A stretch of DNA of 64,000 nucleotides from Dehalococcoidia bacterium (GCA_026003895.1 BPIC01000007.1:19473-83472); one strand, 5' to 3'; counted from the first letter of the stretch, positions 6,344 through 46,680 are shown. Translations and numbers: made by a program. The notes: generated from the letters alone by a model not told the origin.

Positions 6344-6408
6344 CGCCGAGCGACCATGACCAAATCGTCTCTCACGACATCGGGAGCCGAGTGGAGGGGA
6401 GTGAGCTG

Positions 6409-7719
6409 ATGCACGCTACGAATGTCCGTCGCACGATCGCGCCCGAAGGCGTGGCGCGCCCCCCCTACGGCGCCCCGCCCGCCGTCTTAGCCGGCGATTG
6501 GGTCTTTATCGGCGCGACGATGGCGACCGACTGGGAACGCGGAGTCGCCGAGGACTGCCGCGGCCCCGAGGATTTTCCCTTCGACTTGCCACCGATGGCG
6601 CGCCAAGCCGAGGGCATCTACCGCACGCTTGAACGGGTGCTCGGCGCGGCCGGGAGCGCTGTCAAGCATATTGTCCGCCTCGATCAATTCACGCCGGAGC
6701 ATGGCCAGTTTCGTCATTACTTGCCAGTGCGCGATCGGTACATCACACAGGACCGGCCGGCGAGCACCGCGCTCGCGATCAAAGAGTTGCTTGTCCCCGG
6801 CGCCGTGATGCAACTGGACGGGATTGCAATCGTTCCACGTGACGGGTTCGTCAACGTCGGTATCAACAATCCAGCCGCGCCCGCGCCGCGCGCTGGGTAT
6901 TCGATGGCGATCCGCGCAGGCGATTGGATTTGGTGCTCCGGCGCCTCGCCGACCGATTTCAAGAGCCGAGCCCCCTATCCCGGCGGGGTCGGCCACACCC
7001 AGCCTGAGGAAATCATCGTCGATCCGAACTTCTGGTACGGCTCAGAGATCCGGCTGCAAACGCAATACGACTTGCACAAGCTGGAGCTGTATCTCGATGC
7101 GGCTGGCTCCGACTTCGCCCACGTCGTCAAGGCGCAGGTCTATCTGACCGATGCGCGCGACCTTGGCGGGTTTATGGAGGTGTGGCGGGAGACCTTTGGT
7201 GACGATCCACCAGCAACCTCGGTGCAGGTGATCGACAAGATGGGAATCGGAGGCTCGCGCGTCGAGATCAACATGATCGCGATCGCCAAGGATGGGGCGC
7301 TCCGCCGTGAGGTCATTCACACCGCCGCCGCGCCTCAACCGCACATTCCAGCGCCGCAGGCAATCAAAGCTGGCCCCTATCTGTTTCTCTCCGGCCGCGA
7401 AGCGGTTACCGAGCAGGGAATCGACCCGCGAGTGAAGCCGAACGGCGCGTCGCCGTACCTCGGCTCGAAGAGCCGCGATGAGATGGCTGTCATCTTGGAG
7501 CATACGGATGCCATCTGCCGCGCCGCCGGGGGGTCGCTGCGCGACGTGGTGCGGATGCAGGTGTTCACGCCAGACCTGCGCGAGATTGGTCCGGCGCTCG
7601 GGCCGTGGACGGCTGCCTTCCCGAGCGATGCACCCACCCTCACCGTCGTGGGGGTGACGGGACCGCTGCCGGTCCCCTCGCTCGCCCTGACGACCGACAT
7701 CATGGCCTACATCCCCTAA
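6409..7719 (+). CDS. Protein with three tandem RidA/YjgF/L-PSP-like domains
   Basis: Start at ATG 6409 (MHATNV), preceded by GGAGGGGA. Three consecutive modules of about 140-150 aa each end in the family-typical ...V(E/Q/D)(I/L)..(I/M)A strand (VMQLDGIAIV; RVEINMIAIA; LTTDIMAYIP). The track ORF 5983..7719 carries a spurious 5' extension over the upstream gene. Confidence 0.75.
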   Translation: MHATNVRRTIAPEGVARPPYGAPPAVLAGDWVFIGATMATDWERGVAEDCRGPEDFPFDLPPMARQAEGIYRTLERVLGAAGSAVKHIVRLDQFTPEHGQFRHYLPVRDRYITQDRPASTALAIKELLVPGAVMQLDGIAIVPRDGFVNVGINNPAAPAPRAGYSMAIRAGDWIWCSGASPTDFKSRAPYPGGVGHTQPEEIIVDPNFWYGSEIRLQTQYDLHKLELYLDAAGSDFAHVVKAQVYLTDARDLGGFMEVWRETFGDDPPATSVQVIDKMGIGGSRVEINMIAIAKDGALRREVIHTAAAPQPHIPAPQAIKAGPYLFLSGREAVTEQGIDPRVKPNGASPYLGSKSRDEMAVILEHTDAICRAAGGSLRDVVRMQVFTPDLREIGPALGPWTAAFPSDAPTLTVVGVTGPLPVPSLALTTDIMAYIP

Positions 7720-7957: not shown

Positions 7958-8974
7958 TCAGCGGACGGCGGTGGGCTGGGGAGCGGGGCGAGCGAAGCCC
8001 GGCGAGTCGTAGGGATAGCCGAGGTCGATCGCGCTTGCGGCGTCGAGTTGGGCGGTCGCCTCGGGAGACAGGCGGAGGGCGAGCGCTCCGAGCGTGTCGG
8101 CCAGCTGGTCACGCGTACGAGCGCCGATGATCGGCGCGGTGATCCCCGGCCGGTCCATCACCCAGCGCAGCGCAACCTGTGCTGGCGTTGCTCGGCACTC
8201 GTCGGCCACCGCTCGAACGGTATCAATGATGCGGAAGGTGCGTTCGTTCAGCCGGGCGTTCCAGCGGGAGGCGAAGGGGCTGCGCTGCGCCTGATCGCCG
8301 CGGCTGCCGGGCGGCGGCGGCTCGTGCTGGCGGTACTTGCCGGTCAGCAGTCCGCCGCCGAGCGGGCTCCAAGGGATGATGCCGAGACCAAATGCCTGAC
8401 AGGCGGGGATAAGCTCGCGCTCGATGTCGCGCCGGAGCAGGCTGTATTCGGGTTGAAGGGAGATCCAAGCCGGTTGGCGGCGCTCGGTCGCCAATGTCCA
8501 CGATTGCCCCAACTGCCAGCCGGTCAGATTGGAGCAGCCGAGGTAGCGCACCTTGCCCGCGCGGACGCAGTCGGCAAGCGCGTCCAGCGTTTCTTCGATC
8601 GGCGTGCTGTCGTCCCAGCGGTGGATCTGGTAGAGGTCGATCCAGTCGGTTCGAAGGCGACGGAGGCTGGCGTCGACCTGATCGAGGATGTGGCGGCGCG
8701 AGAGGCCGACATCGAGCGGTCCCGGCCCGATCGGTCCGCGCACCTTGGTCGCCAAGACGATTGCTCGGCGTTTTGCGCCGAGCAGCCGGCCGAGCTGTTC
8801 CTCCGACGCGCCACCGCCGTAGACATTCGCGGTGTCGATGCAATTGCCCCCGGCATCGAGGTACTGGTCGATGATGGCGCGGGCGTCGTCGTCGCTCAGC
8901 TGGCCGAACTGCATTGCGCCGAGGATCAGCTCGCTCACTTGGAGGCCAGATCGGCCGAGCGGTCGTAGCTTCAT
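7958..8974 (-). CDS. Aldo/keto reductase
   Basis: MKLRPLGRSGLQVSELILGAMQFG, IDTANVYG, DLYQIHRWD and RYLGCSN are AKR signature blocks. The start could be ATG 8974 or 8977. Confidence 0.85.
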   Translation of the reverse strand: MKLRPLGRSGLQVSELILGAMQFGQLSDDDARAIIDQYLDAGGNCIDTANVYGGGASEEQLGRLLGAKRRAIVLATKVRGPIGPGPLDVGLSRRHILDQVDASLRRLRTDWIDLYQIHRWDDSTPIEETLDALADCVRAGKVRYLGCSNLTGWQLGQSWTLATERRQPAWISLQPEYSLLRRDIERELIPACQAFGLGIIPWSPLGGGLLTGKYRQHEPPPPGSRGDQAQRSPFASRWNARLNERTFRIIDTVRAVADECRATPAQVALRWVMDRPGITAPIIGARTRDQLADTLGALALRLSPEATAQLDAASAIDLGYPYDSPGFARPAPQPTAVR

Positions 8975-27428: not shown

Positions 27429-28856
27429 TCAGCGGTCGACCACGGTCTTGGTCGCCCTCCAAAGGGCGAGCAGCTCGTCCAGCGTGTACTGCTCCAGCAT
27501 GCGGCCTTCCTCACGGGCGCGTGCTTCCATGGCGGCGAAGCGGCGGCGAAAGCGGTCGGCGGCGGCCCGCAGCACGTCTTCGGCCTCGAAGCCTTCCCAA
27601 CGTGCAAGCTGCGCCGTCATCCAGAGGACGTCGCCGAGCTCCCAGAAGCGCTCCTCGGTCGTCTTGGCGCTGCGCAGCTCGGCGAGCTCCTCGTCGAATT
27701 GCGCCCAGACGCCTTCGATGGACTCCCAGGTGAAGCCGGCCTTGGCGGCGCGGAGTTGGAGGGCGTTCGCGAGGGCAAGCGCCGGCATACTGCGGGGGAC
27801 GCCATCGAGGCGGGAGCCGCCTTGGCGCTCGGCGGCCTTGATCTTTTCCCAATTTGCTTCGACTTGCTCGGCAGTGGAAGCGGCGACATCGCCGAAGACA
27901 TGGGGGTGGCGGCGGATCAGCTTGGTCGTGATCCAACGGTAGACGTCGCGAACCGTGAAGATGTCGCTCTCTTCGGCAATCGCAGCATTGAGGTAAACCT
28001 GCAACAAGACGTCGCCGAGCTCGTGGCCATAGGCGACGAGGTCTCCGCTGTCGAGCGCGTCCACCGCCTCAAATGTCTCCTCGATGAGATAACGGCGAAG
28101 CGATTGGTGGGTCTGCTCGCGGTCCCACGGACAATCTCGGCGGAGCCGATGGACGACCTCATCAAAGGTGCGCTCAGCGCCGGATCCGGCACCCTCGAGC
28201 AGGGCAATCGGCGGCAGATAGAGGCAGGTCAGGTGGTCGATCGAGTCGGACCGGTCGATGGCATAGAGCGGCAGCCAAGCAACGCGTTCGTCCTCGAGCC
28301 CGGCGTGGAAGATGAGCGCGACCCGATGCTCCTCGGGATAGCGCTCGAGGAGCGCGATCTTCGCGAGGCCGGCGCTGCGTCGATCGTAGATTTGGCCGAT
28401 GAGGGCGGGCCGGAACGGGTCGACATCGGGCTGGGAGGCATCCGCGATCTGGAGGCCGGCAGCGAGGGGATCGACGGCAACCGCTGCCAGAGCGGGCTCG
28501 ACGAAACTGAGGCCGGCGACGATCCGGACTGGGATGCCGGCCGCCTGTGCGCGCTCATGCAGCAGCCGCACGGTGGTCTCAGCGACGAGCGGATGACCGG
28601 GAACCGCATACACCACGTCGCCTCGCTCGGCGGTGGCGAGAAGCTGGGAGACAATCGTCTCGTAGAGGGCCTCAAACGATTCGGCACGGTCGTACTCGTC
28701 ATCGAACGACTCGACGCGGACGGAGGGCGGGATGATGGCGACGGCCGGATGGCGGCGTGTCCGGAGGTAGACCGTCTCGGCGTTGGCGAGAATCGCGGCT
28801 GCCTGCCGGGTGACGAGCTCGGGGCCGCCTGGCCCGAGCCCGACGATCGTTATCAT
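27429..28856 (-). CDS. mazG: Tetrapyrrole-methylase-domain / MazG nucleoside triphosphate pyrophosphohydrolase fusion (YabN-like)
   Basis: N-terminal MITIVGLGPGGPELVT (TP_methylase). C-terminal tandem MazG repeats (ETFEAVDALDSGD...ELGDVLLQVY; EELAELRSAKT...ELGDVLWMTAQLA). Confidence 0.85.
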   Translation of the reverse strand: MITIVGLGPGGPELVTRQAAAILANAETVYLRTRRHPAVAIIPPSVRVESFDDEYDRAESFEALYETIVSQLLATAERGDVVYAVPGHPLVAETTVRLLHERAQAAGIPVRIVAGLSFVEPALAAVAVDPLAAGLQIADASQPDVDPFRPALIGQIYDRRSAGLAKIALLERYPEEHRVALIFHAGLEDERVAWLPLYAIDRSDSIDHLTCLYLPPIALLEGAGSGAERTFDEVVHRLRRDCPWDREQTHQSLRRYLIEETFEAVDALDSGDLVAYGHELGDVLLQVYLNAAIAEESDIFTVRDVYRWITTKLIRRHPHVFGDVAASTAEQVEANWEKIKAAERQGGSRLDGVPRSMPALALANALQLRAAKAGFTWESIEGVWAQFDEELAELRSAKTTEERFWELGDVLWMTAQLARWEGFEAEDVLRAAADRFRRRFAAMEARAREEGRMLEQYTLDELLALWRATKTVVDR

Positions 28857-34656: not shown

Positions 34657-37600
34657 ATGGCGCTGACTCGTCTCGCGATCACCCGCCCGCTGACGATTCT
34701 CATGCTCATCCTCGGTCTCGTCATCCTTGGTGTCGTGAGCTACCGTCAGTTGCGGGTTGACCGGTTGCCCAACATCAATTTCGGCTTCGTGAGCGTGTTG
34801 GTCACGTGGACGGGCGCCAACCCGCAGGATGTGGAGGAGTACATCCTCAAGCCGCTCGAGGGCGCAGTGTCGGGCGTCTCCGGAGTCGCGAGCATCAGCT
34901 CGCAAGCGTCAAGCGGCCGTGGTTCAGTCAGCGTTCAGCTCGCAGAAGGAGTCGATCCCGACAAGGCTGCGGTGGAAATCGAACGGCGTGTCGCCAGCAT
35001 TCGGGGACGCCTGCCCGCCGACGCCGGTGCACCAGTCGTAAATCGAGCCGACCCGAACGCCTTCCCAATTATGAACATCGCCGTGACGAGTGACCGACCC
35101 CTCGACGAGCTCTACGACATCGTGGTCAACCAAGTGCAGCCACGGTTGCAATCCGTCATCGGTGTCGCCGATGTCACCGTCATTGGTGGCTTGCAGAAAG
35201 AGGTCCAAGTCCAAGTCGACGTCAACAAACTGGCGGCGTATGGCCTGACGATGCAGCAGCTTCAAGCGGCGATCGCCCGCGAGAACCTGAATGCGCCCGC
35301 CGGCAGCCTTGTCGAGGACAACCGGTCGGTGAACGTTCGGTCCATCGGTGAGTATCAGCGCGTCGATGACTTGGGTAATGTCGTTGTCTCGACGAATACT
35401 GGCGCGGGCACGCCTGCCATTCCGCTCCGGAATGTCGCGACCATCCGCGAGGACTACAAGACGCGCACCCGTATCCAGAGGCTTTCGGGGGCGGAAGCAA
35501 TCGGGATTTCGATTATCAAGCAATCCGATGCCAATAGTCTCGAAGTGGCGCATGATCTGAAAGAACAGGTAGAGCGCATCCAGCGGTTGTTGCCGCCAGA
35601 TGTGCGGCTGCGGATCACGAACGACACCTCGCGCTTTACTGAGGCGAGCTTGCATGCCGTGGAGTTTGACCTCGGGCTTGCGGTTGTCCTCTGCGCCCTT
35701 GTTCTGATGCTGTTTCTCCATTCCTGGCGCAACGTGCTCATCGTTGTCCTTGCGATACCGACCTCGCTTATTTCGACGTTCATCGTGATGTACGCGATGG
35801 GGCTGAGTCTGAACACCGTTAGTCTGATGGCGCTGGCGCTCTCGATCGGCATCTTGGTTGACGACTCGATCGTGGTGATCGAGAACATTCACCGCCACTT
35901 GAAGCTCGGTGAAGGTCCGCTGATCGCGGCGTTGAATGGTCGGAGCGAGATTGGGATGGCGGCGATGGCGATTACCTTTGTCGACGTCATCGTTTACCTG
36001 CCGTTGATCTTCATGAGCGGATTTCTTGGCCGTCTCTTCCGCGAGTATGGCATCACGATCGCGATCGCGACGCTCTTCTCGCTGTTCATTTCCTTCACCC
36101 TGACGCCGATGTTGGCGAGCCGGCTGCTTGGTCCGCACCGCGCCGGCCATCGTCCGAACCTCTTCGAGCGGTTTGGTCTCGCGTTCGATGCTGTTTGGGA
36201 TCGGATCGCCCAGTTCTACGGACGGACACTGCGGGTCGCGCTGCGAATGCGGCCGGTTGTCATCATCGTGGCGGCGCTGGCGCTTGCTGGAGCGTTCTCG
36301 CTGGTTCAGCTGCGCATCATCGGCCAAGAATATGCGCCAACCGACGACGATAATCAGTTCACGGTGAGTGTCAACATGCCGCAGGGCAGCTCGCTGGCGG
36401 CGGTCGATGCAGCAACGCAGGCGGTTGAGGCGATGATCCGGCAGGTGCCGGAGGTTGACGAGGTGTTCTCGTCGATCGGCGTCGGCTTTGGCGGCGGCGG
36501 CAATGCCACGATTACCGTCCAGTTGAAGGACAAAGGGACACGATCGCGCTCGGTATTTGACGTCATCAATGAGCTCCGCGCCAAAGGCCAGCAGATCACG
36601 GCTCAGACCCGGGCGACCTTGAACTTTCGCGTCGAGAACCCGCTCGGTGGTGGCGGCGGAGGTGGCAACAACATCTCGGTCCGGCTGCTGGGCGATGACT
36701 ATCCGACAATGGTGCGTACGGCGGCCGAGCTCGGCGAATATCTGAAGTCGGTGCCGGGTGTCGCGGAGGTGCGTGTCTCGCAAACGGCGGGCGAGCCGGA
36801 GATCCGCGCCGTCGCCAACCGGAGCCGGATGGCCGACTTCGGCGTCTCGCAGCAGACAGTGGCAAGCTCGCTGCGCATGGCGCTCTCGGGAGCGACCGTC
36901 GGGGCGTTGCGGCCGGAAGGTGAGCTGCAGCGCGATATCACGCTTATCGCTCAACCGAGCGACCGGGAGAACGTGCAGGCAATCGCCAACCTGCCGATCC
37001 CGACGGCGAGCGGCGGCTTCACGCGGCTGGGCCAAGTCGCCGAGATCACCCGGGCGAACGCGCCGACCTCGGTCAGCCGGCAGGACCGGCAGCGCACGCT
37101 GACGATCAATGTCACCCCGAACGGTCCGGTTGGACAGGTAGCGGATAACCTGCGGAAGGCGCTCGCCGAGTACCAGCTCCCGAGTGGTTACCAGACCATC
37201 GTCGGCGGCTCGGCAGCGACCCTCGATCAGGCGTTCCGCCAGCTCATAGCGGCGCTCTGGTTGTCCGTGCTTCTTATCTACATGCTGATGGTCGCGCTCT
37301 ACGAGTCGTGGCTGCATCCGTTCGCCATCATGTTTTCGGTGCCGGTGGCCCTCGTCGGGGCGTTCCTCGGGCTCTGGGTGACGGGCAACACGCTCAACAT
37401 CTTCTCGATGCTCGGCATCCTGATGCTGCTCGGCCTCGTGGCGAAGAACGGTATCTTGTTGGTGGACTACACCAATACGCTGCGGGCGCGCGGGATGGCG
37501 CGGCTGCCGGCGCTGCTCGAGGCTGCCCCAACGCGGCTGAAGCCGATCATGATGACCTCGGCGACGATCGTGATGGCGATGATCCCGCTCGCGCTCAAAC

Positions 37601-37857
37601 TGGAGGCGGGCGCCGAATCGCGGGCTCCGCTGGCCGTCGTCGTGATTGGCGGAGTCATTTCCTCCACGTTGCTGACGCTCTTCCTCGTTCCGGCGGTGTA
37701 CACCTACCTCGATAGCTTCGGGGAACTGGTTGGACGGCTGTTCCGACGTGGCGAGGTCGTTACGGAGGCGGCCCCTGTCGCTGTCGCCGCATCGGCGTCC
37801 GGCCCGCTCGGTGACGTCGCGGCGAGCGGCGCGCGCCCGCGCCGCTGGTTCCGCTGA
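34657..37857 (+). CDS. RND (AcrB/HAE-type) efflux transporter
   Basis: 1066 aa, MALTRLAITRPLTILMLILGLVILG..., with 12-TM/two-large-loop organisation and conserved GILVDDSIVVIENI and GLVAKNGILLVDY blocks. Confidence 0.9.
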   Translation: MALTRLAITRPLTILMLILGLVILGVVSYRQLRVDRLPNINFGFVSVLVTWTGANPQDVEEYILKPLEGAVSGVSGVASISSQASSGRGSVSVQLAEGVDPDKAAVEIERRVASIRGRLPADAGAPVVNRADPNAFPIMNIAVTSDRPLDELYDIVVNQVQPRLQSVIGVADVTVIGGLQKEVQVQVDVNKLAAYGLTMQQLQAAIARENLNAPAGSLVEDNRSVNVRSIGEYQRVDDLGNVVVSTNTGAGTPAIPLRNVATIREDYKTRTRIQRLSGAEAIGISIIKQSDANSLEVAHDLKEQVERIQRLLPPDVRLRITNDTSRFTEASLHAVEFDLGLAVVLCALVLMLFLHSWRNVLIVVLAIPTSLISTFIVMYAMGLSLNTVSLMALALSIGILVDDSIVVIENIHRHLKLGEGPLIAALNGRSEIGMAAMAITFVDVIVYLPLIFMSGFLGRLFREYGITIAIATLFSLFISFTLTPMLASRLLGPHRAGHRPNLFERFGLAFDAVWDRIAQFYGRTLRVALRMRPVVIIVAALALAGAFSLVQLRIIGQEYAPTDDDNQFTVSVNMPQGSSLAAVDAATQAVEAMIRQVPEVDEVFSSIGVGFGGGGNATITVQLKDKGTRSRSVFDVINELRAKGQQITAQTRATLNFRVENPLGGGGGGGNNISVRLLGDDYPTMVRTAAELGEYLKSVPGVAEVRVSQTAGEPEIRAVANRSRMADFGVSQQTVASSLRMALSGATVGALRPEGELQRDITLIAQPSDRENVQAIANLPIPTASGGFTRLGQVAEITRANAPTSVSRQDRQRTLTINVTPNGPVGQVADNLRKALAEYQLPSGYQTIVGGSAATLDQAFRQLIAALWLSVLLIYMLMVALYESWLHPFAIMFSVPVALVGAFLGLWVTGNTLNIFSMLGILMLLGLVAKNGILLVDYTNTLRARGMARLPALLEAAPTRLKPIMMTSATIVMAMIPLALKLEAGAESRAPLAVVVIGGVISSTLLTLFLVPAVYTYLDSFGELVGRLFRRGEVVTEAAPVAVAASASGPLGDVAASGARPRRWFR

Positions 37858-37882: not shown

Positions 37883-39001
37883 GTGAACTGCGCATTCACT
37901 CTGATCACGACCGATGGCGACGCGCGGCGCGGCCGGCTCATCACGAGTCGCGCGGTCATCGAAACTCCGGCGTTTATGCCGGTGGGCACTCAGGCGACCG
38001 TCAAGACGCTGCGCCCAGAGCAGGTCGCAGATCTCGGCTATCGGCTGATTTTGGCGAATACCTACCACCTGCACCTTCAGCCGGGCGAGGAGATTGTCGA
38101 GCGGCTGGGTGGCGTCCAGCGCATGATGGGGTGGCCGGGCGCACTGCTCACGGATTCGGGCGGCTACCAAGTGTTCAGCCTGTCTGCGTTGCGCGAGGTC
38201 GACGACGACGGTGTCACCTTTAGCACACCGCTCGGCCCTCGGCGGCTGACGCCTGAAGGAGTGATGGCGATCCAGCGGGCACTCGGCTCGGACATCGCGA
38301 TGGTGCTGGATGACGTTCCTCCTATGAATGCGCCGCCATCCGTGCAGCGCGCGGCCCTCGAGCGGACGCATCGCTGGGCACTCCGCTGCTTGGCGGCGCC
38401 ACGGCGGCCGGACCAAGCGCGCTTTGCCATCGTCCAGGGCGGGGCTGTGATCGAGTGGCGACGCGAGTCGGCGAGCTTTCTCGCTGGGTATCCGTTCGAC
38501 GGGTTCGGGATTGGCGGGCTCTCGCTCGGCGAGGAAAAATCCCTGACGTGGGCACTGACTGCCGCTGCCTGTGCGGCGCTTCCCGCCGAGCGGCCACGCT
38601 ACCTGATGGGCGTTGGGGCGCCGGACGACCTCGTCCGCGGCGTCGCCGCTGGCGTGGACCTGTTCGACTGTGTACTGCCGACGCGGATCGCCCGCCACGG
38701 CGCGGTGTTTACGCGGTTCGGTCAGCTGTCGCTTAAGTCGGGCCGGCTCGCCGCTGCCGGTGGTCCGATCGATGAGCAGTGCGACTGCCTCGCCTGCCGG
38801 GAATACTCGCGGGGCTGGCTGCGTCACCTGCTCCTTGTGGGCGATCCGCTCGGGATGCGGCTGGCAACACTGCACAATCTGCGGTTTCTTTCGATGTTGA
38901 TGGCGGAGATTCGGCGAGCAATCGAGGAGCAGCGGTTCGCTGCGTTCGCGGCGAGCTATCCGTATGGATCGATTCGAAGAGGCGATCTTCCCGCGGCGTG
39001 A
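37883..39001 (+). CDS. tgt: Queuine tRNA-ribosyltransferase (tRNA-guanine transglycosylase)
   Basis: ARRGRLITSRAVIETPAFMPVGTQATVK, LLTDSGGYQVFSL, FAIVQGG, FDGFGIGGLSLGE, GVDLFDCVLPTRIARHG, and CDCLAC...RHL...LHNL zinc site. Confidence 0.9.
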   Translation: MNCAFTLITTDGDARRGRLITSRAVIETPAFMPVGTQATVKTLRPEQVADLGYRLILANTYHLHLQPGEEIVERLGGVQRMMGWPGALLTDSGGYQVFSLSALREVDDDGVTFSTPLGPRRLTPEGVMAIQRALGSDIAMVLDDVPPMNAPPSVQRAALERTHRWALRCLAAPRRPDQARFAIVQGGAVIEWRRESASFLAGYPFDGFGIGGLSLGEEKSLTWALTAAACAALPAERPRYLMGVGAPDDLVRGVAAGVDLFDCVLPTRIARHGAVFTRFGQLSLKSGRLAAAGGPIDEQCDCLACREYSRGWLRHLLLVGDPLGMRLATLHNLRFLSMLMAEIRRAIEEQRFAAFAASYPYGSIRRGDLPAA

Positions 39002-39248
39002 GCTGTTCGGGAGGGCGCTGCTGCGACTGGTGAACCTCGCCGATCAGCGGGGAGTCTCGCTCCGGGTGGACGACTTCCGCGCCGTCCTCCCCTGCGGTGA
39101 CGGAGAAATCTCATACGAGTTGCAGCTCTTTGGGCGGACCGTTGTGCGGCGTACTGAGCGCGGCCGCATCGTCTGGAGCGGCGAGAGCTTCGACTTCGAA
39201 CGCGGGTTGGACTTATTCGAGCGCGCGGTCGAGGAAGCGGACACGTGA
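38964..39248 (+). CDS. Hypothetical 94-aa protein (overlaps the tgt 3' end by 38 nt)
   Basis: This ORF fills most of the 335-nt gap between tgt and its paralogue. Third-codon positions are mostly G/C, as in neighbouring genes. No clear SD sequence and no recognisable motif. Confidence 0.35.
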   Translation: MDRFEEAIFPRRELFGRALLRLVNLADQRGVSLRVDDFRAVLPCGDGEISYELQLFGRTVVRRTERGRIVWSGESFDFERGLDLFERAVEEADT

Positions 39249-39336
39249 CGAAAAGGGAAGGATTTCGTGCTCTGGCGGAATCTCACCCTCCCGTCTCTTC
39301 GGACTTGGGTGACCGTACAACAGCGAGGAAGTCAAC

Positions 39337-40305
39337 GTGAGCGAGAGGAGACAGGACGACAGCCGGTTGCCGCCACCAGGGCTTGAGTGCAGAGCGGCAC
39401 GGAGCGGCATCGTGGTGCCCGCCCCGTGGGGCGCCGTGCGAGGACTGCTTCCGGAGGAATTGCGAGCAAGCGGCGTCACCGGGCTGGTGGTCGGAAGTGT
39501 GGAACTCGCGCTGCGGCCGGGTCTCGCAACGGTGGAGGCGCTGGGCGGCCTTGGGGCGCTCACGGACGGGCTCGCCGTCATCGGGGAACCGGGAATCGGT
39601 GCGCTGCTCGGGGAAGGCGGGCTCCCGCCGGCGCGGATTGGACGCGCTGGCGAAACGATCGCCTACCGCAACGGACTGGATGGCGCCGAAGGGGAGCTGA
39701 CGCCGGAATCCTCACTTGCGGCGCAGCAACGGCTGGGTGTCGCAATTGCCATCGCCCCGACGCTTCCGGAGCACCTCACAGTAAACGAGCGGCCCCGGGC
39801 GATCCCCGTTACGCTCGCCGAGACGTGGTTGCGCCGGGGCGCAGCAGTTCGCAGTGCGGCGCGTGTGCTCGCGCTCATTCCAGCCGGCAGCCCGCGGTTT
39901 CAGCGGCGACTGCTGGAGGTGGCGGCCGAGTCTGGGTTCGACGGGGTTGCGGTGGCGACCTTGGTGCCGCGCAAGGGATGGCCGGCGGGTTGGATCTGGC
40001 TGGCGCTCACGGTATCGACTGTCGACGACGTTCGCACCGCCGTCGCGCTCGGCTACGACTATGTCGTGCCGAGCTTTGCGCTCACCTTGGCGCGCCGGGG
40101 CGAGGCGCTCGCTGGGACGAGCGCTGTTGCGGTCGCCGGCTTCCCCGCCGAGACGGGCCCCCTCGATCTAGCGTGCGACTGCCCGGCGTGCCGATTTCCG
40201 CTCGGCTATTTGGCTCATCTCGTCCGGGCGAACGAGATGCTGGGTGAGACCCTGCTGCTGCTGCACAATTTGCGTGTCCTGACCCGGATCGCCGACGCGG
40301 CTTGA
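39337..40305 (+). CDS. Divergent TGT-fold paralogue (zinc site kept, base-pocket residues changed)
   Basis: GTG 39337 after GAGGAAG. By-eye collinear alignment with the adjacent Tgt: ELTPESSLAAQQRLGVAIAIAP, FDGVAVATL, ALGYDYVVPSFALTLARRG, CDCPACRFPLGYLAHL...LLLLHNLRVL. Confidence 0.7.
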   Translation: MSERRQDDSRLPPPGLECRAARSGIVVPAPWGAVRGLLPEELRASGVTGLVVGSVELALRPGLATVEALGGLGALTDGLAVIGEPGIGALLGEGGLPPARIGRAGETIAYRNGLDGAEGELTPESSLAAQQRLGVAIAIAPTLPEHLTVNERPRAIPVTLAETWLRRGAAVRSAARVLALIPAGSPRFQRRLLEVAAESGFDGVAVATLVPRKGWPAGWIWLALTVSTVDDVRTAVALGYDYVVPSFALTLARRGEALAGTSAVAVAGFPAETGPLDLACDCPACRFPLGYLAHLVRANEMLGETLLLLHNLRVLTRIADAA

Positions 40306-40337
40306 CCCCGCGCGCGACGGATTGCTAGGCTGTTGCC

Positions 40338-40685
40338 ATGCCGCGCTACACGCTCCACCTTGCCCCCAAAGCCGAGTTCGAGGCAAGTGACCCATCTTCT
40401 GACTACGCGCCAGCAGCGTTTGCGCGTGAGGGATTCATTCACTGTACGGACGGCGCCGAGGAGATGGCACGTACCGCGAACCGGCACTACGCCGGCGATC
40501 CGCGCGAGTTCCTCGTGCTCGTCCTCGATCGGGAGCGGATCGCTGCTCCGGTGACGGTGGAGGATGAGCGCGGAATCTATCCGCACATTCACGGGCGGCT
40601 GAACCGCGACGCGATCGTTCGCATTGTGCCGATGCCGCGCTCCCCCGATGGCCGATTCCTGCCGCCCGAGCTCGGCGCACCGTGA
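40338..40685 (+). CDS. DUF952 family protein
   Basis: 115 aa with REGFIHCTDG ... GIYPHIHGRLNRDAI, the characteristic GFIHCS / YPHIYG blocks of DUF952. Confidence 0.7.
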   Translation: MPRYTLHLAPKAEFEASDPSSDYAPAAFAREGFIHCTDGAEEMARTANRHYAGDPREFLVLVLDRERIAAPVTVEDERGIYPHIHGRLNRDAIVRIVPMPRSPDGRFLPPELGAP

Positions 40686-40851: not shown

Positions 40852-42201
40852 GTGAATCGAGAGGAGGCGCGACGGCGTGCTGGGGAGTTGATGGCGCAGG
40901 CCCGCGAGCAGGGCGTCCGCTATGTCAATCTCCAGTTTACCGACATCACCGGCATCGCCAAGAGCGTCACCATTCCGGTGGAACGGCTCGGTGAAGCGGT
41001 CGAGCACGGGAAGTGGTTCGACGGCTCCGCGATTGAAGGGTTCGCGCGAACCGCCGAATCCGATATGTACCTGCTGCCGGACTTGGAGACGTTCGCGATT
41101 CTGCCGTGGGAGAAGGGGGAGGACGCGACGGCGCGGGTGCTCTGCTGGATCCACAATCCAAACGGCGAGCTCTTCGCGGGCGACCCACGCGCGACTCTCC
41201 GGCGTGCGCTCGACGAAGCACGGGCGATGGGGTTCCAGTATCAAGTTGGGCCAGAGCTCGAGTTCTTCCTCTTCAACCGGCAGGGATCGGCGATTGCCCC
41301 CTTGCCACACGACCGCGCTAGCTACTTCGACTACTCGGCGGACCAGGCGGCGCACGTGCGCCGGCAAATGGTCGACGCGCTGCAAGCAATGGGCGTCGTC
41401 GTTGAGTCGGCGCACCACGAAGTGGCGGCAGGTCAGCATGAGATCGACCTGCGCTACGCCGACGCGCTCGCGACTGCCGATAACGTCGTAACGGTGAAAT
41501 ACACGTTAAAGGCGATAGCTCAGGCGCACGATCTGTATGCGACCTTTTTGCCCAAACCCATCTACGGGATCAATGGCTCCGGCATGCATTGCCACCAGAG
41601 CTTGTCGGACTTGCAAGGGCGTAACCTGTTTGCCGACCCGTCGGATGAGTATGGCCTATCGGAGATCGCGCGCTCGTTCATTGCCGGCCAGCTGGAGCAT
41701 GCACGGGGGATGTGTGCCGTGCTGTCGCCGCTGGTGAATAGCTACAAACGGCTGGTCGCGGGGTACGAAGCACCGGTGTACATCTCGTGGGCGCGAGTGA
41801 ACCGCTCGGCGCTGATTCGGGTGCCGAAAGTAAGCCCCGGCCGGCAGGACTCGACTCGTCTGGAGCTGCGCTGCCCGGATCCGGCGTGCAACCCGTACCT
41901 CGCCTTCGCAGTGATGCTGAAAGCCGGGCTGGACGGCATCCGCCGGGAGCTGCCGCTCCCCGAGCCGATAGAAGAAAACATCTTTCAGTTCGATGAAGCT
42001 GAGCTGCGAAGACGCAATATCGGCATTCTTCCCAGCACGCTTGGTGAAGCGATCGACGCGCTTCTTGAAGATACTGTGGTCCAGGATGCGCTTGGAGATC
42101 ACATTCTCGAACGCTTTGTTGAAGCGAAACGGCAAGAATGGGACTCGTTTCGGGCCTATGTCTCGCAATGGGAGCTCGATCGCTATTTTGAAGTGTACTA
42201 G
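40852..42201 (+). CDS. glnA: Glutamine synthetase, type I
   Basis: GTG start after GGAGGTGA. FTDITGIAKSVTIP, FDGSAIEGFAR, GPELEFFLF, KPIYGINGSGMHCHQSL, NSYKRLVAGYEAP, RVPKVSPG..TRLELRCPD. Confidence 0.9.
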   Translation: MNREEARRRAGELMAQAREQGVRYVNLQFTDITGIAKSVTIPVERLGEAVEHGKWFDGSAIEGFARTAESDMYLLPDLETFAILPWEKGEDATARVLCWIHNPNGELFAGDPRATLRRALDEARAMGFQYQVGPELEFFLFNRQGSAIAPLPHDRASYFDYSADQAAHVRRQMVDALQAMGVVVESAHHEVAAGQHEIDLRYADALATADNVVTVKYTLKAIAQAHDLYATFLPKPIYGINGSGMHCHQSLSDLQGRNLFADPSDEYGLSEIARSFIAGQLEHARGMCAVLSPLVNSYKRLVAGYEAPVYISWARVNRSALIRVPKVSPGRQDSTRLELRCPDPACNPYLAFAVMLKAGLDGIRRELPLPEPIEENIFQFDEAELRRRNIGILPSTLGEAIDALLEDTVVQDALGDHILERFVEAKRQEWDSFRAYVSQWELDRYFEVY

Positions 42202-42266
42202 GTTGTTCTTGCTGCTCTCCGCTGCCCTTGCTACACTTTGAGTACCCCGGGTCTCGGGGAGGGTAC

Positions 42267-43706
42267 ATGAAGAACCTAACACCGCAATCGGTCGTTGCCG
42301 AGCTCGATAGGTACATCGTGGGGCAGACCGAGGCGAAGCGCGCGATGGCAATCGCGCTCCGGAACCGGTATCGCCGCCAGCAGCTCCCCCCGGAGATCGC
42401 CCGCGAAATCGCACCAAAAAACTTGCTATTGATCGGCCCAACTGGTGTTGGCAAGACCGAACTTGCTCGCCGGGTGGCCGCGCTTGCCGACGCGCCCTTC
42501 GTCAAGGTAGAGGCGACGAAGTTCACCGAGGTCGGCTACGTTGGTAAGGATGTCGATTCCATCGTCCATGACCTCGTCGAGGCGAGTGTCCAACTCGTTC
42601 ACGAGGAGAAGCTGAAAGAGGTCGAGGCGCGGGCGGAGACCCAGGCGACTGAGAAGATCTTGAATTATCTCGTTCAGCAGCTGCCGGTGACCGCGCGAAA
42701 GGTGGCAGCGAAGCGGAGCTCCGGCGGTGCTCAAGCGGCCGCCGATGTGGCAGAGACGCCCGCAGCACCTCCGCGGCCGCGGCCGATCACCCGTGCCGAC
42801 AAAGCGCGCCTCCATCGTGAGCGTGATCGACTGCGGTCGATGCTTCAAAGCAAACAGCTCGAAGACCAAATCATCGAAATCGAGGTGGGCGGCGAGGTCG
42901 ACCGCTTCGAGTCGATGCTCGAGTTTGGCGGCGCCAATCCAGAAGAGATGAGCGATGCCTATAGCGACTTCCTCGAGTCGTATCACGGCGTAGGGGGATC
43001 GCGGCGTCGCTCGCGGCGCGTCTCAGTGAAGGAGGCGCGGCGCATCTTGACGCGCGAAGAGGCGACCAAACTGATCGACATGGAGAACGTCATCGAGACG
43101 GCGGTGCAGCGCGCCGAATCGAGCGGTGTCGTGTTTATCGACGAGCTGGATAAGGTGGCTGGGCCCCGCCACGAGATCGGCTCCGATGTCTCGGGCGAGG
43201 GCGTCCAGCGCGACCTGCTCCCGATCGTCGAAGGGACGACGGTGACAACGCGCTACGGGCCGATCAAGACCGACCACGTGCTGTTCGTGGCGGCAGGCTC
43301 GTTCTACCAGAACAAGCCATCCGACCTGATCCCTGAGCTGCAAGGGCGCTTTCCGCTGCGTGTCGAACTGAAAAGCCTGACGGAAGAGGATTTCCGGCGG
43401 ATCCTGACCGAGCCGGAGAACGCGCTCACCAAGCAATACATCGCGTTGCTCGGGACCGAAGGCGTCACAATCACCTTCGGTGACGACGCGATCGCCGAGA
43501 TCGCCCGGGTCGCAGTGTTGATGAACGAACGCCTCGAGAACATCGGCGCTCGCCGGTTGCACACCATCATGGAGCGGGTGCTCGAGGAGATTTCCTTCAG
43601 CGCTCCGGAGCGAGCTGGCGAGACGATTCATATCGATGCGGAGTTCGTGCGGGAGCGCATGGCGGAACTGATCAAGGATCAGGATCTCAGCCGCTACATC
43701 CTGTAA
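42267..43706 (+). CDS. hslU: ATP-dependent protease ATPase subunit HslU
   Basis: MKNLTPQSVVAELDRYIVGQTEAKRAMAIALRNRYRR, Walker A GPTGVGKTELARR, FVKVEATKFTEVGYVGKDV, GVVFIDELDK, FVAAGSF. No hslV lies adjacent. Confidence 0.9.
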   Translation: MKNLTPQSVVAELDRYIVGQTEAKRAMAIALRNRYRRQQLPPEIAREIAPKNLLLIGPTGVGKTELARRVAALADAPFVKVEATKFTEVGYVGKDVDSIVHDLVEASVQLVHEEKLKEVEARAETQATEKILNYLVQQLPVTARKVAAKRSSGGAQAAADVAETPAAPPRPRPITRADKARLHRERDRLRSMLQSKQLEDQIIEIEVGGEVDRFESMLEFGGANPEEMSDAYSDFLESYHGVGGSRRRSRRVSVKEARRILTREEATKLIDMENVIETAVQRAESSGVVFIDELDKVAGPRHEIGSDVSGEGVQRDLLPIVEGTTVTTRYGPIKTDHVLFVAAGSFYQNKPSDLIPELQGRFPLRVELKSLTEEDFRRILTEPENALTKQYIALLGTEGVTITFGDDAIAEIARVAVLMNERLENIGARRLHTIMERVLEEISFSAPERAGETIHIDAEFVRERMAELIKDQDLSRYIL

Positions 43707-43758
43707 GCTGTAGGCCATCGTGGCCGGGACCGGCCCTCATACGCGGACCGAGGGGGAG

Positions 43759-46680
43759 ATGGCGGACGAGTCGCTCCAGCTGGTCGTCGTCGGGTCGGAT
43801 GGGCGCGAGGAGCGCAAGCCGCTCGCCGACGGCACCACCTTGATTGGCCGGGATCCGGACTGCCAGATTCGGCTGGTCGACGCCACCATCTCGCGCCGGC
43901 ATGCCGCGATCGAGCGCGACAACGGTCGCCTCCGCCTGACCGATCTTGGCAGCGCGAACGGGACCATCCTCAATGGGCTGACGCTCGTCCCACGGAGCCC
44001 GGTGACGCTGCGCGAAGGCGACGAGATCGTCATCGGCTCGTTCCGGCTGAAATTGCAGCGCGATGTAGCCGGATGGTCACCGCGCCAGGCGGCACCGCCA
44101 GCCTCTGCGCCGCCGCCAGTGCAGCCGCTCGCGGCGCCGTATGGCGCATCGTCCCCACCGCCGGAGTTCCGCGCCCCGGCGCCGCCATTCGGCGGAGAGC
44201 CTGGTAGCCCGTCCCGCGAGCTGACGAGCATTGGCGTCGGGTATCAGCCACCCCGCCTCATTGTGTGGGACCGGGGAAGCTCCCGCGAGTATCCCATTCC
44301 GGCGTCCGGGCTGGCGATCGGGCGGGATCCGGCGAACGCTGTCACGATCGATGACCCGCAGGTCAGCCGACGTCACGCCGAGATTCGCCACGTTCCCGGT
44401 GGCTACGAAATCGTCGACCTCGGTAGCACCTACGGCGTCTTCCAGAACGGCCAGCGCGTCGGTCGGAAAATGCTGGTCGACAACGACACCTTTCACATTA
44501 GCGATTCGGTGCGGATCGTCTTTCGCGCTGGCGCAGCGCTCCCACCGCCCCCGAGTCCGGCGACGCTCCAAATCGAGTTCGGGACGCGGGATGTCATCAC
44601 GATCGGACGCGATCCAAGCAACGACATCCCGCTAAATCACCCGCAAGTCTCGCGGTTTCACGCTCGGCTGACGCGGCGCGGCGCCGAGGTGCTGCTGAGC
44701 GATCTCGGGTCGACGAACGGGACGTTCGTCAACGGCCAGCCGATTGCGACGGTGCCGCTGCGCGACACTGATCACTTCCAGATCGGCCCCTATGAGTTCA
44801 CGATCAGCGGTGGGCTCGTTGCCGCGGTCTCCAACGAAGGCAACATCCGCGTCGACGCGGTCAATATCAGCCGGACGGTCCGTGGCAACAAGGTGATCCT
44901 GCAGCCCGTCACGCTTAGCTTCAAGCCACGGGAGCTGGTTGCGGTTGTCGGCGCCTCCGGCTCGGGCAAGACGACTCTCCTGAACGCGCTTTCGGGGTTC
45001 CGTCCCGCGACGCAAGGCCGGGTCTTGTACAACGGGCAAGACCTCTATCGCAGCTTCGAGGTGTTTCGCAACTCGATCGGGTTTGTGCCGCAGGACGACA
45101 TCATCCACCGTGAACTGCCGGTGATCGAGACGCTGCGCTACGCCGCGAAGCTTCGGCTGCCGCGCGACACAACGGCGGCCGAGCGAGAGGAGCGCATCGC
45201 CGAAGTCTTGTCGGACTTGGGGCTCGAGGAGCAGCGCAATAACCGGGTGGAAGAGCTCTCTGGCGGGCAGCGCAAGCGTGTCAGCATGGGGGTCGAATTG
45301 CTGACGCGGCCGAGCCTCTTCTTCCTCGATGAGCCGACATCCGGCCTCGATCCTGCGACCGAAACGCGGATGATGCAGCTCTTGCGCCAATTGGCCGATC
45401 AAGGCCGGACTATTCTCCTGATTACCCACGCCACGCAGAACATCAAGCTGTGTGACAAGGTCGTCTTCATGGCGCGCGGCGGCTATCTCGCCTTCTTCGG
45501 GACGCCAGCCGAAGCGTTGGAGTTTTTCGGCGTCCAAGAGTTCGCCGACATCTACGACATCATGCAGGGCGAGGAAACGCGTGGCCTGATCGCTTCACGC
45601 TACGCCGCGTCACACTATCACGAGGAGCATCTCGGCTCGCTCAGCCGGGAAATCCGGGATGTCGCCGGGCAGTTGACGAACAAGGCGCGACCTGCTTCGC
45701 GCAAGAAGGGCATCTCAAGCATCCGCCAACTGTTCATCTTGACCGCGCGTACGATAGCGGTAACGAGGGCCAACCGGAAGGCGCTCGGTATCGTGCTCCT
45801 TCAAGCACCCATCATTGCGCTGCTTGTGGCGATCGTTTTTCCTCGCACGATTTTCAATGATCGGCCGGTCTACATCCCGCCAGAGCGGGTCCTTGCCGCC
45901 GGCTTGCAAGTCGATCCGGCCAAGCCACTGCCGAACTGCGGACTGAGCCAGTCGCAAATGGACGAATTGCCGGAGATCTTACGCCAGCCCGAGATGAAAG
46001 AGGGTTGCGGGAACGCGATGCGTGTCATGTCGCTGCTCTTCTTCATGGTGCTGGTCGTGATCTGGTTCGGAACGTCGAATGCTTCCAAGGAGATCGTCAA
46101 GGAGCTCCCCATCTACAAGCGGGAACGGATGATCGGTATCCGTATCGTTCCTTACCTGTTTTCGAAGGTAATCCCGCTCTTGGGGATTGCCTTGATTCAA
46201 AACGTCGTCTTTCTGCTCATTATGATGATCATCCTGCCGTTCCCATTCGACGGACCGCGGATGTTCCTCGAGTTTTTCGGGATGCTGTATATGGTGAGCA
46301 TTGCGGCCGTGCTGCTTGGCCTTTTCGTGTCGTCGGTTGTCGGCAGCGTCGACGAGTCGAACAGTATTGTGCCAATCCTCCTGATCCCGCAGGTGGTGTT
46401 CTCGGGCGCGGTGATCCCGCTTGCCAAGATGCCGGGCTTCACCCAACCGATCGCAAATTTCGTCATCAGCCGGTGGGGTTGGGAATCGGTCGGCAACATC
46501 CTCAACGTCTCGCACATGGCCGAGAAGCAGGGCGGCCCAACCTATCAGATGCTGATCGAGCAAGAATGGCTGAACGCGTTCGACGTCAGCGTGCGCACGC
46601 ACTCGCTCATCCTCGTCGCCTTCTGCGTTGTCTTTCTGGCTGCCTCCTACGTCGCGTTGCGCCGAAAGGACACCGTCTAA
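43759..46680 (+). CDS. ABC exporter (ATPase plus ABC-2 permease, ABCG-like topology) with three N-terminal FHA domains
   Basis: Start at ATG 43759 after GAGGGGGAG. FHA cores: LIGRDPDCQIRLVDATISRRHAAI...LTDLGSANGTILNG; AIGRDPANAVTIDDPQVSRRHAEI...IVDLGSTYGVFQNG; TIGRDPSNDIPLNHPQVSRFHARL...LSDLGSTNGTFVNG. Walker A GASGSGKTT, signature LSGGQRKR, Walker B LFFLDEPTSGLD, then a 6-TM ABC-2 region. Confidence 0.85.
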   Translation: MADESLQLVVVGSDGREERKPLADGTTLIGRDPDCQIRLVDATISRRHAAIERDNGRLRLTDLGSANGTILNGLTLVPRSPVTLREGDEIVIGSFRLKLQRDVAGWSPRQAAPPASAPPPVQPLAAPYGASSPPPEFRAPAPPFGGEPGSPSRELTSIGVGYQPPRLIVWDRGSSREYPIPASGLAIGRDPANAVTIDDPQVSRRHAEIRHVPGGYEIVDLGSTYGVFQNGQRVGRKMLVDNDTFHISDSVRIVFRAGAALPPPPSPATLQIEFGTRDVITIGRDPSNDIPLNHPQVSRFHARLTRRGAEVLLSDLGSTNGTFVNGQPIATVPLRDTDHFQIGPYEFTISGGLVAAVSNEGNIRVDAVNISRTVRGNKVILQPVTLSFKPRELVAVVGASGSGKTTLLNALSGFRPATQGRVLYNGQDLYRSFEVFRNSIGFVPQDDIIHRELPVIETLRYAAKLRLPRDTTAAEREERIAEVLSDLGLEEQRNNRVEELSGGQRKRVSMGVELLTRPSLFFLDEPTSGLDPATETRMMQLLRQLADQGRTILLITHATQNIKLCDKVVFMARGGYLAFFGTPAEALEFFGVQEFADIYDIMQGEETRGLIASRYAASHYHEEHLGSLSREIRDVAGQLTNKARPASRKKGISSIRQLFILTARTIAVTRANRKALGIVLLQAPIIALLVAIVFPRTIFNDRPVYIPPERVLAAGLQVDPAKPLPNCGLSQSQMDELPEILRQPEMKEGCGNAMRVMSLLFFMVLVVIWFGTSNASKEIVKELPIYKRERMIGIRIVPYLFSKVIPLLGIALIQNVVFLLIMMIILPFPFDGPRMFLEFFGMLYMVSIAAVLLGLFVSSVVGSVDESNSIVPILLIPQVVFSGAVIPLAKMPGFTQPIANFVISRWGWESVGNILNVSHMAEKQGGPTYQMLIEQEWLNAFDVSVRTHSLILVAFCVVFLAASYVALRRKDTV

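Follow-up and report, generated by a model that had tools for sequence, protein, structure and literature searches.

A 64,000-nucleotide (nt) stretch from a Dehalococcoidia bacterium (GCA_026003895.1, BPIC01000007.1:19473-83472), which we refer to as the window, carries on its plus strand, between positions 37883 and 40685, a canonical tgt gene for a tRNA-guanine transglycosylase (TGT), a small orphan open reading frame (ORF), a gene for a degenerate TGT-fold protein (the paralogue) and a DUF952 gene. We conclude with good confidence that the paralogue is unable to perform the Tgt reaction and that it is a functional zinc-binding pseudoenzyme, which descends from a bacterial Tgt. Comparison of sequences and predicted structures leads us further, and more tentatively, to favor the reading that this dead Tgt descendant is most likely a non-catalytic dimer partner of the Tgt encoded upstream, i.e., an analogue of eukaryotic QTRT2 with an independent origin; we rate the chance of this at a little below even. 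A first-pass annotation, made from the nucleotide sequence, had delimited the ORFs in this segment, and their coordinates were all confirmed.

Bacterial Tgt is regarded as obligately homodimeric, with only one of its active sites at work on each tRNA. Eukaryotic TGT has fixed this one-site asymmetry by pairing a catalytic with a dead subunit.

The paralogue gene occupies positions 39337-40305 and encodes 322 amino acids (aa) if translation begins with the GTG at 39337; NCBI uses an alternative GTG further in, at 39412, which gives 297 aa. The protein is 100% identical to an NCBI entry from a metagenome-assembled genome (MAG) of a member of the Dehalococcoidia (Chloroflexota). That it follows the barrel of Tgt had been proposed by eye, and this was borne out by every method used. 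The Pfam family PF01702 was matched over residues 32-318 with an E value of 4.7e-25 (88.9 bits, cut-off 26.3), and a phmmer comparison with Zymomonas mobilis Tgt gave an E value of 1e-17 over residues 31-315. The score against TIGR00430 was 65.2 bits, which is under the equivalog cut-off of 306.75. The AlphaFold2 (AF2) model, which has a predicted local distance difference test score (pLDDT) of 91.3 and a predicted template modelling score (pTM) of 0.87, consists of a (beta/alpha)8 barrel and a C-terminal zinc subdomain; its top Foldseek matches are structures of Z. mobilis Tgt (E value 5e-22, query TM-score 0.77-0.80). Residues are numbered below as in this Z. mobilis enzyme unless a paralogue residue is named; L-numbers denote related loci and P-numbers related proteins. 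The zinc ligands of the paralogue, Cys280, Cys282, Cys285 and His310 (equivalent to C318, C320, C323 and H349), are invariant in the family, and the earlier statement that the CxCxxC...H site is kept is thus correct.

Most of what a Tgt needs for catalysis is gone. HMMER, MAFFT and the strand register of the AF2 model agreed on the residue equivalences. The nucleophile Asp280 corresponds to Val244 in AF2 strand 242-245, and this position is occupied by Val, Ala or Glu across the family. Asp102 is replaced by Glu84 in the motif VIGEPG, at the end of AF2 strand 80-84; this Glu is invariant in the family and also occurs in the distant relatives P0037, P0038 and P0041. Asp156 is Thr in the window paralogue and Thr or Ala in the family as a whole. 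By alignment, Gln203 has become Ala or Pro, and Met260 Ala or Leu. The residues Gly229-Gly230-Leu231 are changed to Ala-Thr-Leu, which is followed by a deletion of about 14 residues that takes out the loop with Glu235 (GGLxxGE). The first-pass annotation was therefore right that the base-reading positions are replaced (at Asp156, Gln203 and the shortened GGLxxGE loop). It had also seen an Asp at the nucleophile position and had suggested that the TD of LLTDSGG survives in the motif GALTDG. Neither assignment holds. The Asp of GYDYVVP aligns with Asp277, and both HMMER and MAFFT place LTDSGG on VIGEPG, while the TD of GALTDG lies in the preceding loop. Because these residues were misassigned, the support for residual catalysis that had been drawn from them falls away.

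The paralogue also lacks the N-terminal beta-hairpin of Tgt (about 40 aa) and, since it ends 12 residues past the zinc-ligand His, the C-terminal helices. With one exception the family members are mildly acidic, with isoelectric points (pI) of 5.6-6.2, and the net positive charge of Tgt has gone. The family has in turn acquired its own invariant motifs, namely APWG, EGG, YRNxxDGA, APxxP and NxR. When the paralogue profile was compared with solved structures, bacterial Tgt scored 110-114 bits, QTRT1 83 bits and QTRT2 34 bits, the last over the zinc part only; solved structures of ArcTGT, DpdA and Cap10 were not matched. An NCBIfam scan likewise gave no match to the ArcTGT/ArcS models TIGR00432 and NF040592.

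The paralogue gene is under purifying selection but evolves about three times faster than tgt. In pairwise codon analyses the non-synonymous rate (dN) of GlnA was 0.04-0.06; Tgt had a value of 0.11 and the small ORF one of 0.12-0.14, while the paralogue reached about 0.33. The ratio of dN to the synonymous rate (dS) for the paralogue was 0.2-0.3, with dS being saturated (>1). Of its approximately 300 alignment columns 80 are invariant, and these cluster in specific structural elements. To locate them we mapped the conservation of eight family members onto the Z. mobilis numbering. The zinc subdomain with helices aE and aF (318-352) has a mean conservation of 0.86; 47% of its positions are invariant and 56% are identical to the Tgt consensus. 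Next comes the loop-helix motif (44-62), with a mean of 0.80. Conservation is lowest in the segments that correspond to the pocket and the nucleophile of Tgt (229-291), where the values are 0.56-0.58 and about 10% of the positions are invariant.

The two most conserved regions are the elements that build the dimer interface of Tgt (bioRxiv 10.1101/2020.09.01.277731). In that structure the interface is made by the loop-helix motif Thr47-Thr62, by an aromatic cluster of Trp326, Tyr330 and His333 on helix aE together with Phe92' of the other subunit, and by a salt bridge between Lys52 and Glu339' (bioRxiv 10.1101/2020.09.01.277731). The paralogue keeps Y330, H333, L334 and E339. The position of K52 is Arg in P0001-P0007 and Ala or Leu in the distant proteins P0037 and P0038, and the loop has gained an invariant Trp in the APWG motif. 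Selection in this family keeps what a TGT needs to dimerise and to fold around zinc, and not what it needs for catalysis.

The upstream gene (37883-39001, 372 aa) is a textbook tgt, as had been annotated. Its product matches PF01702 with an E value of 4e-132 and TIGR00430 with 420.6 bits (cut-off 306.75), and it keeps D102, D156, Q203, G229/G230, E235, M260, D280 and all zinc ligands. It is unusual only at the hot spot of the dimer interface, where Trp occupies the position of Tyr330 and Met the position of Phe92. Both exchanges, Y330W and F92M, are present in all seven Tgts of the clade, i.e., in the window copy and in P0184-P0189, which are 71-86% identical to it. They are absent from all 113 of the next-closest Tgts (52-60% identity), each of which has Tyr330 and Phe92. 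In a further sample, of 129 canonical Tgts, the window's own protein was the only one with Trp330. The clade Tgts are evenly conserved across all regions (0.78-0.93) and basic (pI 8.3-9.2). The pair of exchanges fits, at the level of sequence, an interface that co-evolves with that of a heterodimer partner.

The same succession of genes, with the small ORF between tgt and the paralogue, is found in L001, L002, L081-L083, L084 and L085. The small ORF (38964-39248, 94 aa, locus tag KatS3mg060_3408) had been treated as incidental; it is the gene that is most tightly coupled to tgt. It occurs in eight further loci with 53-85% identity and always with a length of 93-95 aa, and this conservation identifies it as a real gene. 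It overlaps tgt by 35-38 nt at every locus; in the window the overlap is 38 nt and in a different frame. In L001, L081, L084 and L085 the small ORF in turn overlaps the paralogue by 4 nt, which indicates that these two genes are translationally coupled. In the window, by contrast, 88 nt lie between the two, and a GAGGAAG box precedes the GTG at 39337. In two Joint Genome Institute (JGI) samples (L089 and L090) fliN/fliL lie downstream of tgt and the small ORF. The small ORF was absent from all 78 canonical tgt loci examined, and a cluster search recovered ten clusters of it (59-100% identity), which all belong to this clade.

The small protein is acidic, and its AF2 model (pLDDT 90.4) consists of a helix (11-29), five strands between residues 34 and 75, and a second helix (78-93). 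Searches against Pfam, NCBIfam, PHROGs, PADLOC and a PDB profile set found no significant relative, and a Foldseek search against PDB and BFVD gave nothing significant; weak similarities to SycE-like and immunity proteins were below significance. We considered whether the small ORF could be the N-terminus that has been split off from the paralogue. This was rejected, since P0037 has its own N-terminal hairpin and yet has the small ORF upstream, and since the predicted fold of helix, five strands and helix is unlike the Tgt hairpin. Judged by its conserved overlap with tgt alone, the small protein may be an accessory subunit that is bound to Tgt. A further observation concerns the overlap itself. 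The C-terminal tail of Tgt, YPYGS[IV]RRGDLPAA, is conserved in the clade and shares 38 nt (38964-39001) with the start of the small protein (MDRFEEAIFPRR), so that two frames constrain each other.

The system is confined to a few MAGs of uncultured Chloroflexota, apparently from hot springs. A search of 5.8 billion clustered proteins returned only seven clusters of close relatives of the paralogue (47-100% identity), and the next matches were ordinary Tgts with about 30% identity. Among 1.84 billion representatives at 50% identity the family comprises P0003, P0006 and P0007; the same set contained the distant degenerate relatives P0037 (237 bits), P0038 (173 bits), P0039 (153 bits) and the fragment P0040, after which canonical Tgts followed. 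The paralogue is present in only two of 185,579 GTDB species representatives. It is 27.6% identical to the neighboring Tgt, and its profile reaches a mean of 128 bits with ordinary Tgts but a lower mean, of 88 bits, with the neighboring Tgts of the clade. The lower score indicates that both copies have diverged and that the duplication or acquisition is old. A recent tandem duplication of the neighboring tgt is not supported by these values.

Bacterial Tgt (tRNA-guanine(34) transglycosylase, EC 2.4.2.29), for example that of Z. mobilis, is the best match of the paralogue in both sequence and structure. Barrel and zinc subdomain are common to the two, as are the beta-hairpin insert YRNxLDG and the motif GYLxHL..A.E.LG of helix aE; the paralogue differs in the loss of D280, D102, D156, Q203, the GGLxxGE loop and M260, and in being acidic and not basic. 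In its design it resembles QTRT2, which is also a TGT-fold paralogue of a catalytic subunit, with zinc site and canonical dimer architecture retained and with catalytic Asps and base pocket replaced (PMC6165067). In QTRT2 Asp279 has become Glu, Asp105 Cys and Met259 Cys, and the protein forms a homodimer when alone (PMC6165067). The two proteins are not orthologous: the paralogue profile scores 34 bits with QTRT2, over the zinc subdomain only, compared with 110-114 bits for bacterial Tgt. The substitutions are also different, since the paralogue has Glu at D102 and Val, Ala or Glu at D280 where QTRT2 has Cys and Glu respectively. The paralogue is shorter (about 300 versus about 415 aa), since its N-terminal hairpin and C-terminal part are missing, and it is accompanied by an orphan 94-aa protein; a heterodimer is in this case a prediction.

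Other relatives are less similar. Cap10, DpdA and ArcS are cases in which the TGT fold was recruited to jobs other than the insertion of preQ1 into tRNA. Cap10, from type IV CBASS (cyclic oligonucleotide-based antiphage signaling system), has no zinc site, dimerises via a remodelled tRNA surface and is encoded together with a CD-NTase (cGAS/DncV-like nucleotidyltransferase) and the QueC-like Cap9 (bioRxiv 10.1101/2025.04.06.647259); the paralogue, by contrast, has the zinc site and no CBASS genes around it. DpdA retains the catalytic Asps and is encoded in dpd clusters, whereas the paralogue has lost the nucleophile and has no dpd genes in the window. ArcS continues into C-terminal C1-C3/PUA domains, at a point where the paralogue ends within 12 residues of its zinc-ligand His. 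A DpdA- or Cap10-like island for defense or DNA modification was rejected: PADLOC and PHROGs searches gave no match, dpd, CBASS and que genes were missing from the 40 ORFs of the window, and there was no corresponding PDB match.

What the analysis shows is the TGT fold with its zinc ligands, the absence of the catalytic and pocket residues, the action of purifying selection, the distribution of conservation and the order of the genes; the model we build on this is as follows. A protein with a retained (beta/alpha)8 barrel and zinc subdomain, which has kept the two halves of the dimer interface of Tgt as well but has lost the covalent nucleophile, the residues that read the 7-deazaguanine and the net positive charge, would pair with the catalytic Tgt that is encoded upstream. 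This corresponds to the QTRT2-like partner, one of the two readings offered by the first-pass annotation, and it fits the data. The 94-aa protein, which is translationally coupled to tgt, may join as a third component. The pairing, any effect on tRNA modification and the role of the small protein are inferred. The full version of this model, in which a re-cut Tgt (Y330W/F92M), a pseudo-Tgt and a 94-aa subunit form a bacterial heteromeric Tgt that differs in how, when or on which RNAs the enzyme acts, is possible though doubtful. If it were true, it would be a case of convergent evolution, inside Bacteria, of the eukaryotic QTRT1/QTRT2 arrangement and a natural second instance of a transition from a homodimer to a pair of a catalytic and a dead subunit. 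The advantage of a dead subunit could then be studied in a simple system, and the finding would bring a new small protein into the queuosine field. Its practical weight is limited by the fact that it concerns a handful of uncultured Chloroflexota. A non-catalytic Tgt paralogue from bacteria was not described in the literature searched, the coverage of which was incomplete, so that this is not proof of absence.

Several observations weigh against the idea that the paralogue is the partner of Tgt. The adjacency of tgt and the paralogue, the conservation of which the first-pass annotation had proposed to check, holds for the loci with the recurrent order (L001, L002, L081-L083, L084 and L085) and fails in two lineages. 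In the samples of L089 and L090 the paralogue (P0002, 71% identity) is located apart from tgt on other contigs (L091-L093), where the order is TspO, paralogue, DUF952 remnant and glnA. In L086 the distant degenerate copy P0038 directly precedes glnA-hslU, without an upstream tgt or small ORF. Since the paralogue does not adjoin tgt in these two lineages, the operon linkage must be dispensable. Furthermore, adjacency is weak evidence here, because all the genomes are closely related and their synteny is conserved in general. In L002, from the MAG STL-CHL33, the paralogue gene is frameshifted (L002:7980-8901, two frames near 8429-8449); it is the only exception among the loci examined, the ORF being intact in eight other lineages with 37-71% identity. 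The interface itself is ambiguous, because the retained residues fit a homodimer of the paralogue equally well, and because the truncation of the protein at both ends may have altered the interface geometry. The exchanges in the catalytic Tgt are open to the same objection. In the homodimer residue 330 is in contact with residue 92' of the other subunit, and a compensatory pair in a homodimeric Tgt could explain them equally well. In the outgroup Tgt P0190 (65% identical) Trp330 is already present together with Phe92, and neither the small ORF nor the paralogue is found beside it.

A rather unlikely alternative is that the paralogue is a non-enzymatic zinc-binding homodimer which stands alone and has some other binding or regulatory role, possibly linked to glnA, so that its position next to tgt would be the scar of an old tandem duplication. 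Away from tgt the paralogue is still intact, with 71% identity to the copy in the window, degenerate TGT-like genes elsewhere also stand alone (P0039 and P0041), and QTRT2 on its own homodimerises (PMC6165067). In addition, glnA lies directly 3' of the paralogue, or of DUF952, at all eight loci in which the downstream gene was identified, including the two without an adjacent tgt; in L086, where tgt and the small ORF are lacking upstream, only 2 nt separate the stop codon of the paralogue from the start of glnA. However, nothing connects TGT folds with glutamine synthetase, and the adjacency to glnA may be synteny that was inherited in one narrow clade. The 4-nt overlap of the small ORF with the paralogue in four lineages argues for co-translation with the tgt/small-ORF pair, and the interface hot spot of Tgt has changed in exactly this clade.

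It is more difficult to see the paralogue as an enzyme. The first-pass annotation had offered a retargeted transglycosylase as one option, which is now disfavored because the nucleophile is lost and variable, the pocket is the least conserved region and the net positive charge has disappeared. A related version, in which a remodelled enzyme uses the invariant Glu at the position of D102 together with a rebuilt pocket, and perhaps has the small protein as its substrate, or a base that is not preQ1, seems improbable to us. It would account for the invariance of Glu84 and its presence in P0037, P0038 and P0041, for the new motifs APWG, EGG, YRNxxDGA, APxxP and NxR, and for the small conserved protein that is encoded alongside; there are also earlier cases of TGT folds put to a new use, among them the deazaguanylation of protein by Cap10 (bioRxiv 10.1101/2025.04.06.647259). 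It does not agree with a nucleophile position that varies between Val, Ala and Glu, with pocket segments that are the least conserved or with a deleted base-reading loop. The 40 window ORFs moreover include no que, QueC-like, CD-NTase or dpd gene and gave no PADLOC match, and the zinc site and canonical interface are kept, unlike in Cap10.

At the other extreme the paralogue could be a slowly decaying duplicate without a function of its own, which we consider the least probable of all the explanations. Its threefold faster evolution relative to Tgt, the loss of the catalytic residues and of both termini, the frameshift in L002 and the decay of the neighboring DUF952 gene in L091 all point in this direction. 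They have to be set against an ORF that is intact in eight other lineages spanning 37-71% identity, a dN/dS of 0.2-0.5 in spite of a saturated dS, 80 of about 300 columns that are invariant and clustered in structural elements, a confident AF2 model and the retention of the gene after it became unlinked from tgt. As to the frameshifted copy in L002, the second half of its product is only 46% identical, and the locus may represent a real pseudogene or an assembly error.

The gene after the paralogue (40338-40685) encodes, as annotated, a DUF952 protein of the CC0527 type, which is ADP-ribosyltransferase-like (PF06108, E value 1.2e-17, 64 bits, cut-off 23.7). Its inclusion in the module did not survive the comparison with related loci. 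DUF952 follows the paralogue in three lineages (the window, L002 and the contig of P0007), and is missing from at least four (absent in L001, L081, L084, L085 and L086). In L091 (3050-3265), and also in L092 and L093, it is reduced to a 71-aa remnant that has kept both ends (MPR..HLAP...EGFIHC...NRDAIV) and has lost the middle by deletion. This repeated loss, together with the deletion remnant, led us to reject DUF952 as a core component, and it is probably a decaying or facultative neighbor and not a stable part of the module. The literature describes no link between DUF952 and TGT (PMC8120803).

Degenerate TGT-like proteins are not restricted to this locus. About 25 of the best 150 representative matches are other TGT-like proteins that have all four zinc ligands and lack Asp280, and most of them lack the pocket residues too. 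Examples are P0057, P0064, P0066, P0068, P0071, P0074, P0079, P0083, P0089, P0090, P0097, P0104, P0108, P0111, P0126, P0132, P0136 and P0154. P0039 and P0041 are stand-alone degenerate TGT-like genes in unrelated contexts. Judging from these alignments, dead TGT paralogues may be a recurrent and wider phenomenon in metagenomes. Such genes can also be hidden by annotation. At L081:6411-7229 (and also in L082 and L083) the public gene call is a 272-aa minus-strand gene without a Pfam match, which overlies the intact plus-strand paralogue ORF at 6282-7289; an annotation error of this kind would hide the paralogue in surveys.

The window as a whole is a high-GC chromosomal stretch (about 65% guanine plus cytosine). 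The GC skew is positive in all 2-kb bins but one and the cumulative skew climbs steadily, from which we conclude that the window probably lies within a single replichore. We called 40 ORFs and scanned them against Pfam. None of them is a que, dpd, CBASS, CD-NTase, QueC-like or other defense gene, which confirms the earlier remark that queCDEF and dpdB-K are absent from the window, and the PADLOC and PHROGs searches had no matches. On the plus strand the genes discussed here are preceded by an RND (resistance-nodulation-division) efflux pump gene (34657-37857) and followed by glnA for glutamine synthetase I (40852-42201), which we regard as context, and by hslU (42228-43706), which has no hslV immediately upstream or downstream of it in the window; the pair glnA-hslU also comes after the paralogue in the related lineages. 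The next gene (43720-46680) encodes a 986-aa transporter with three forkhead-associated (FHA) domains, an ATP-binding cassette (ABC) ATPase and an ABC-2 membrane domain. No intrinsic terminator was found between the genes from the efflux pump to this FHA-ABC transporter; the two terminator-like matches lie within the coding regions of tgt and glnA. Promoter-like sites were not detected among these genes either. The FHA-ABC gene is kept downstream of hslU in related loci. On the minus strand of the window (27429-28856) a 475-aa protein is encoded in which a tetrapyrrole-methylase domain is fused to a MazG pyrophosphohydrolase domain.

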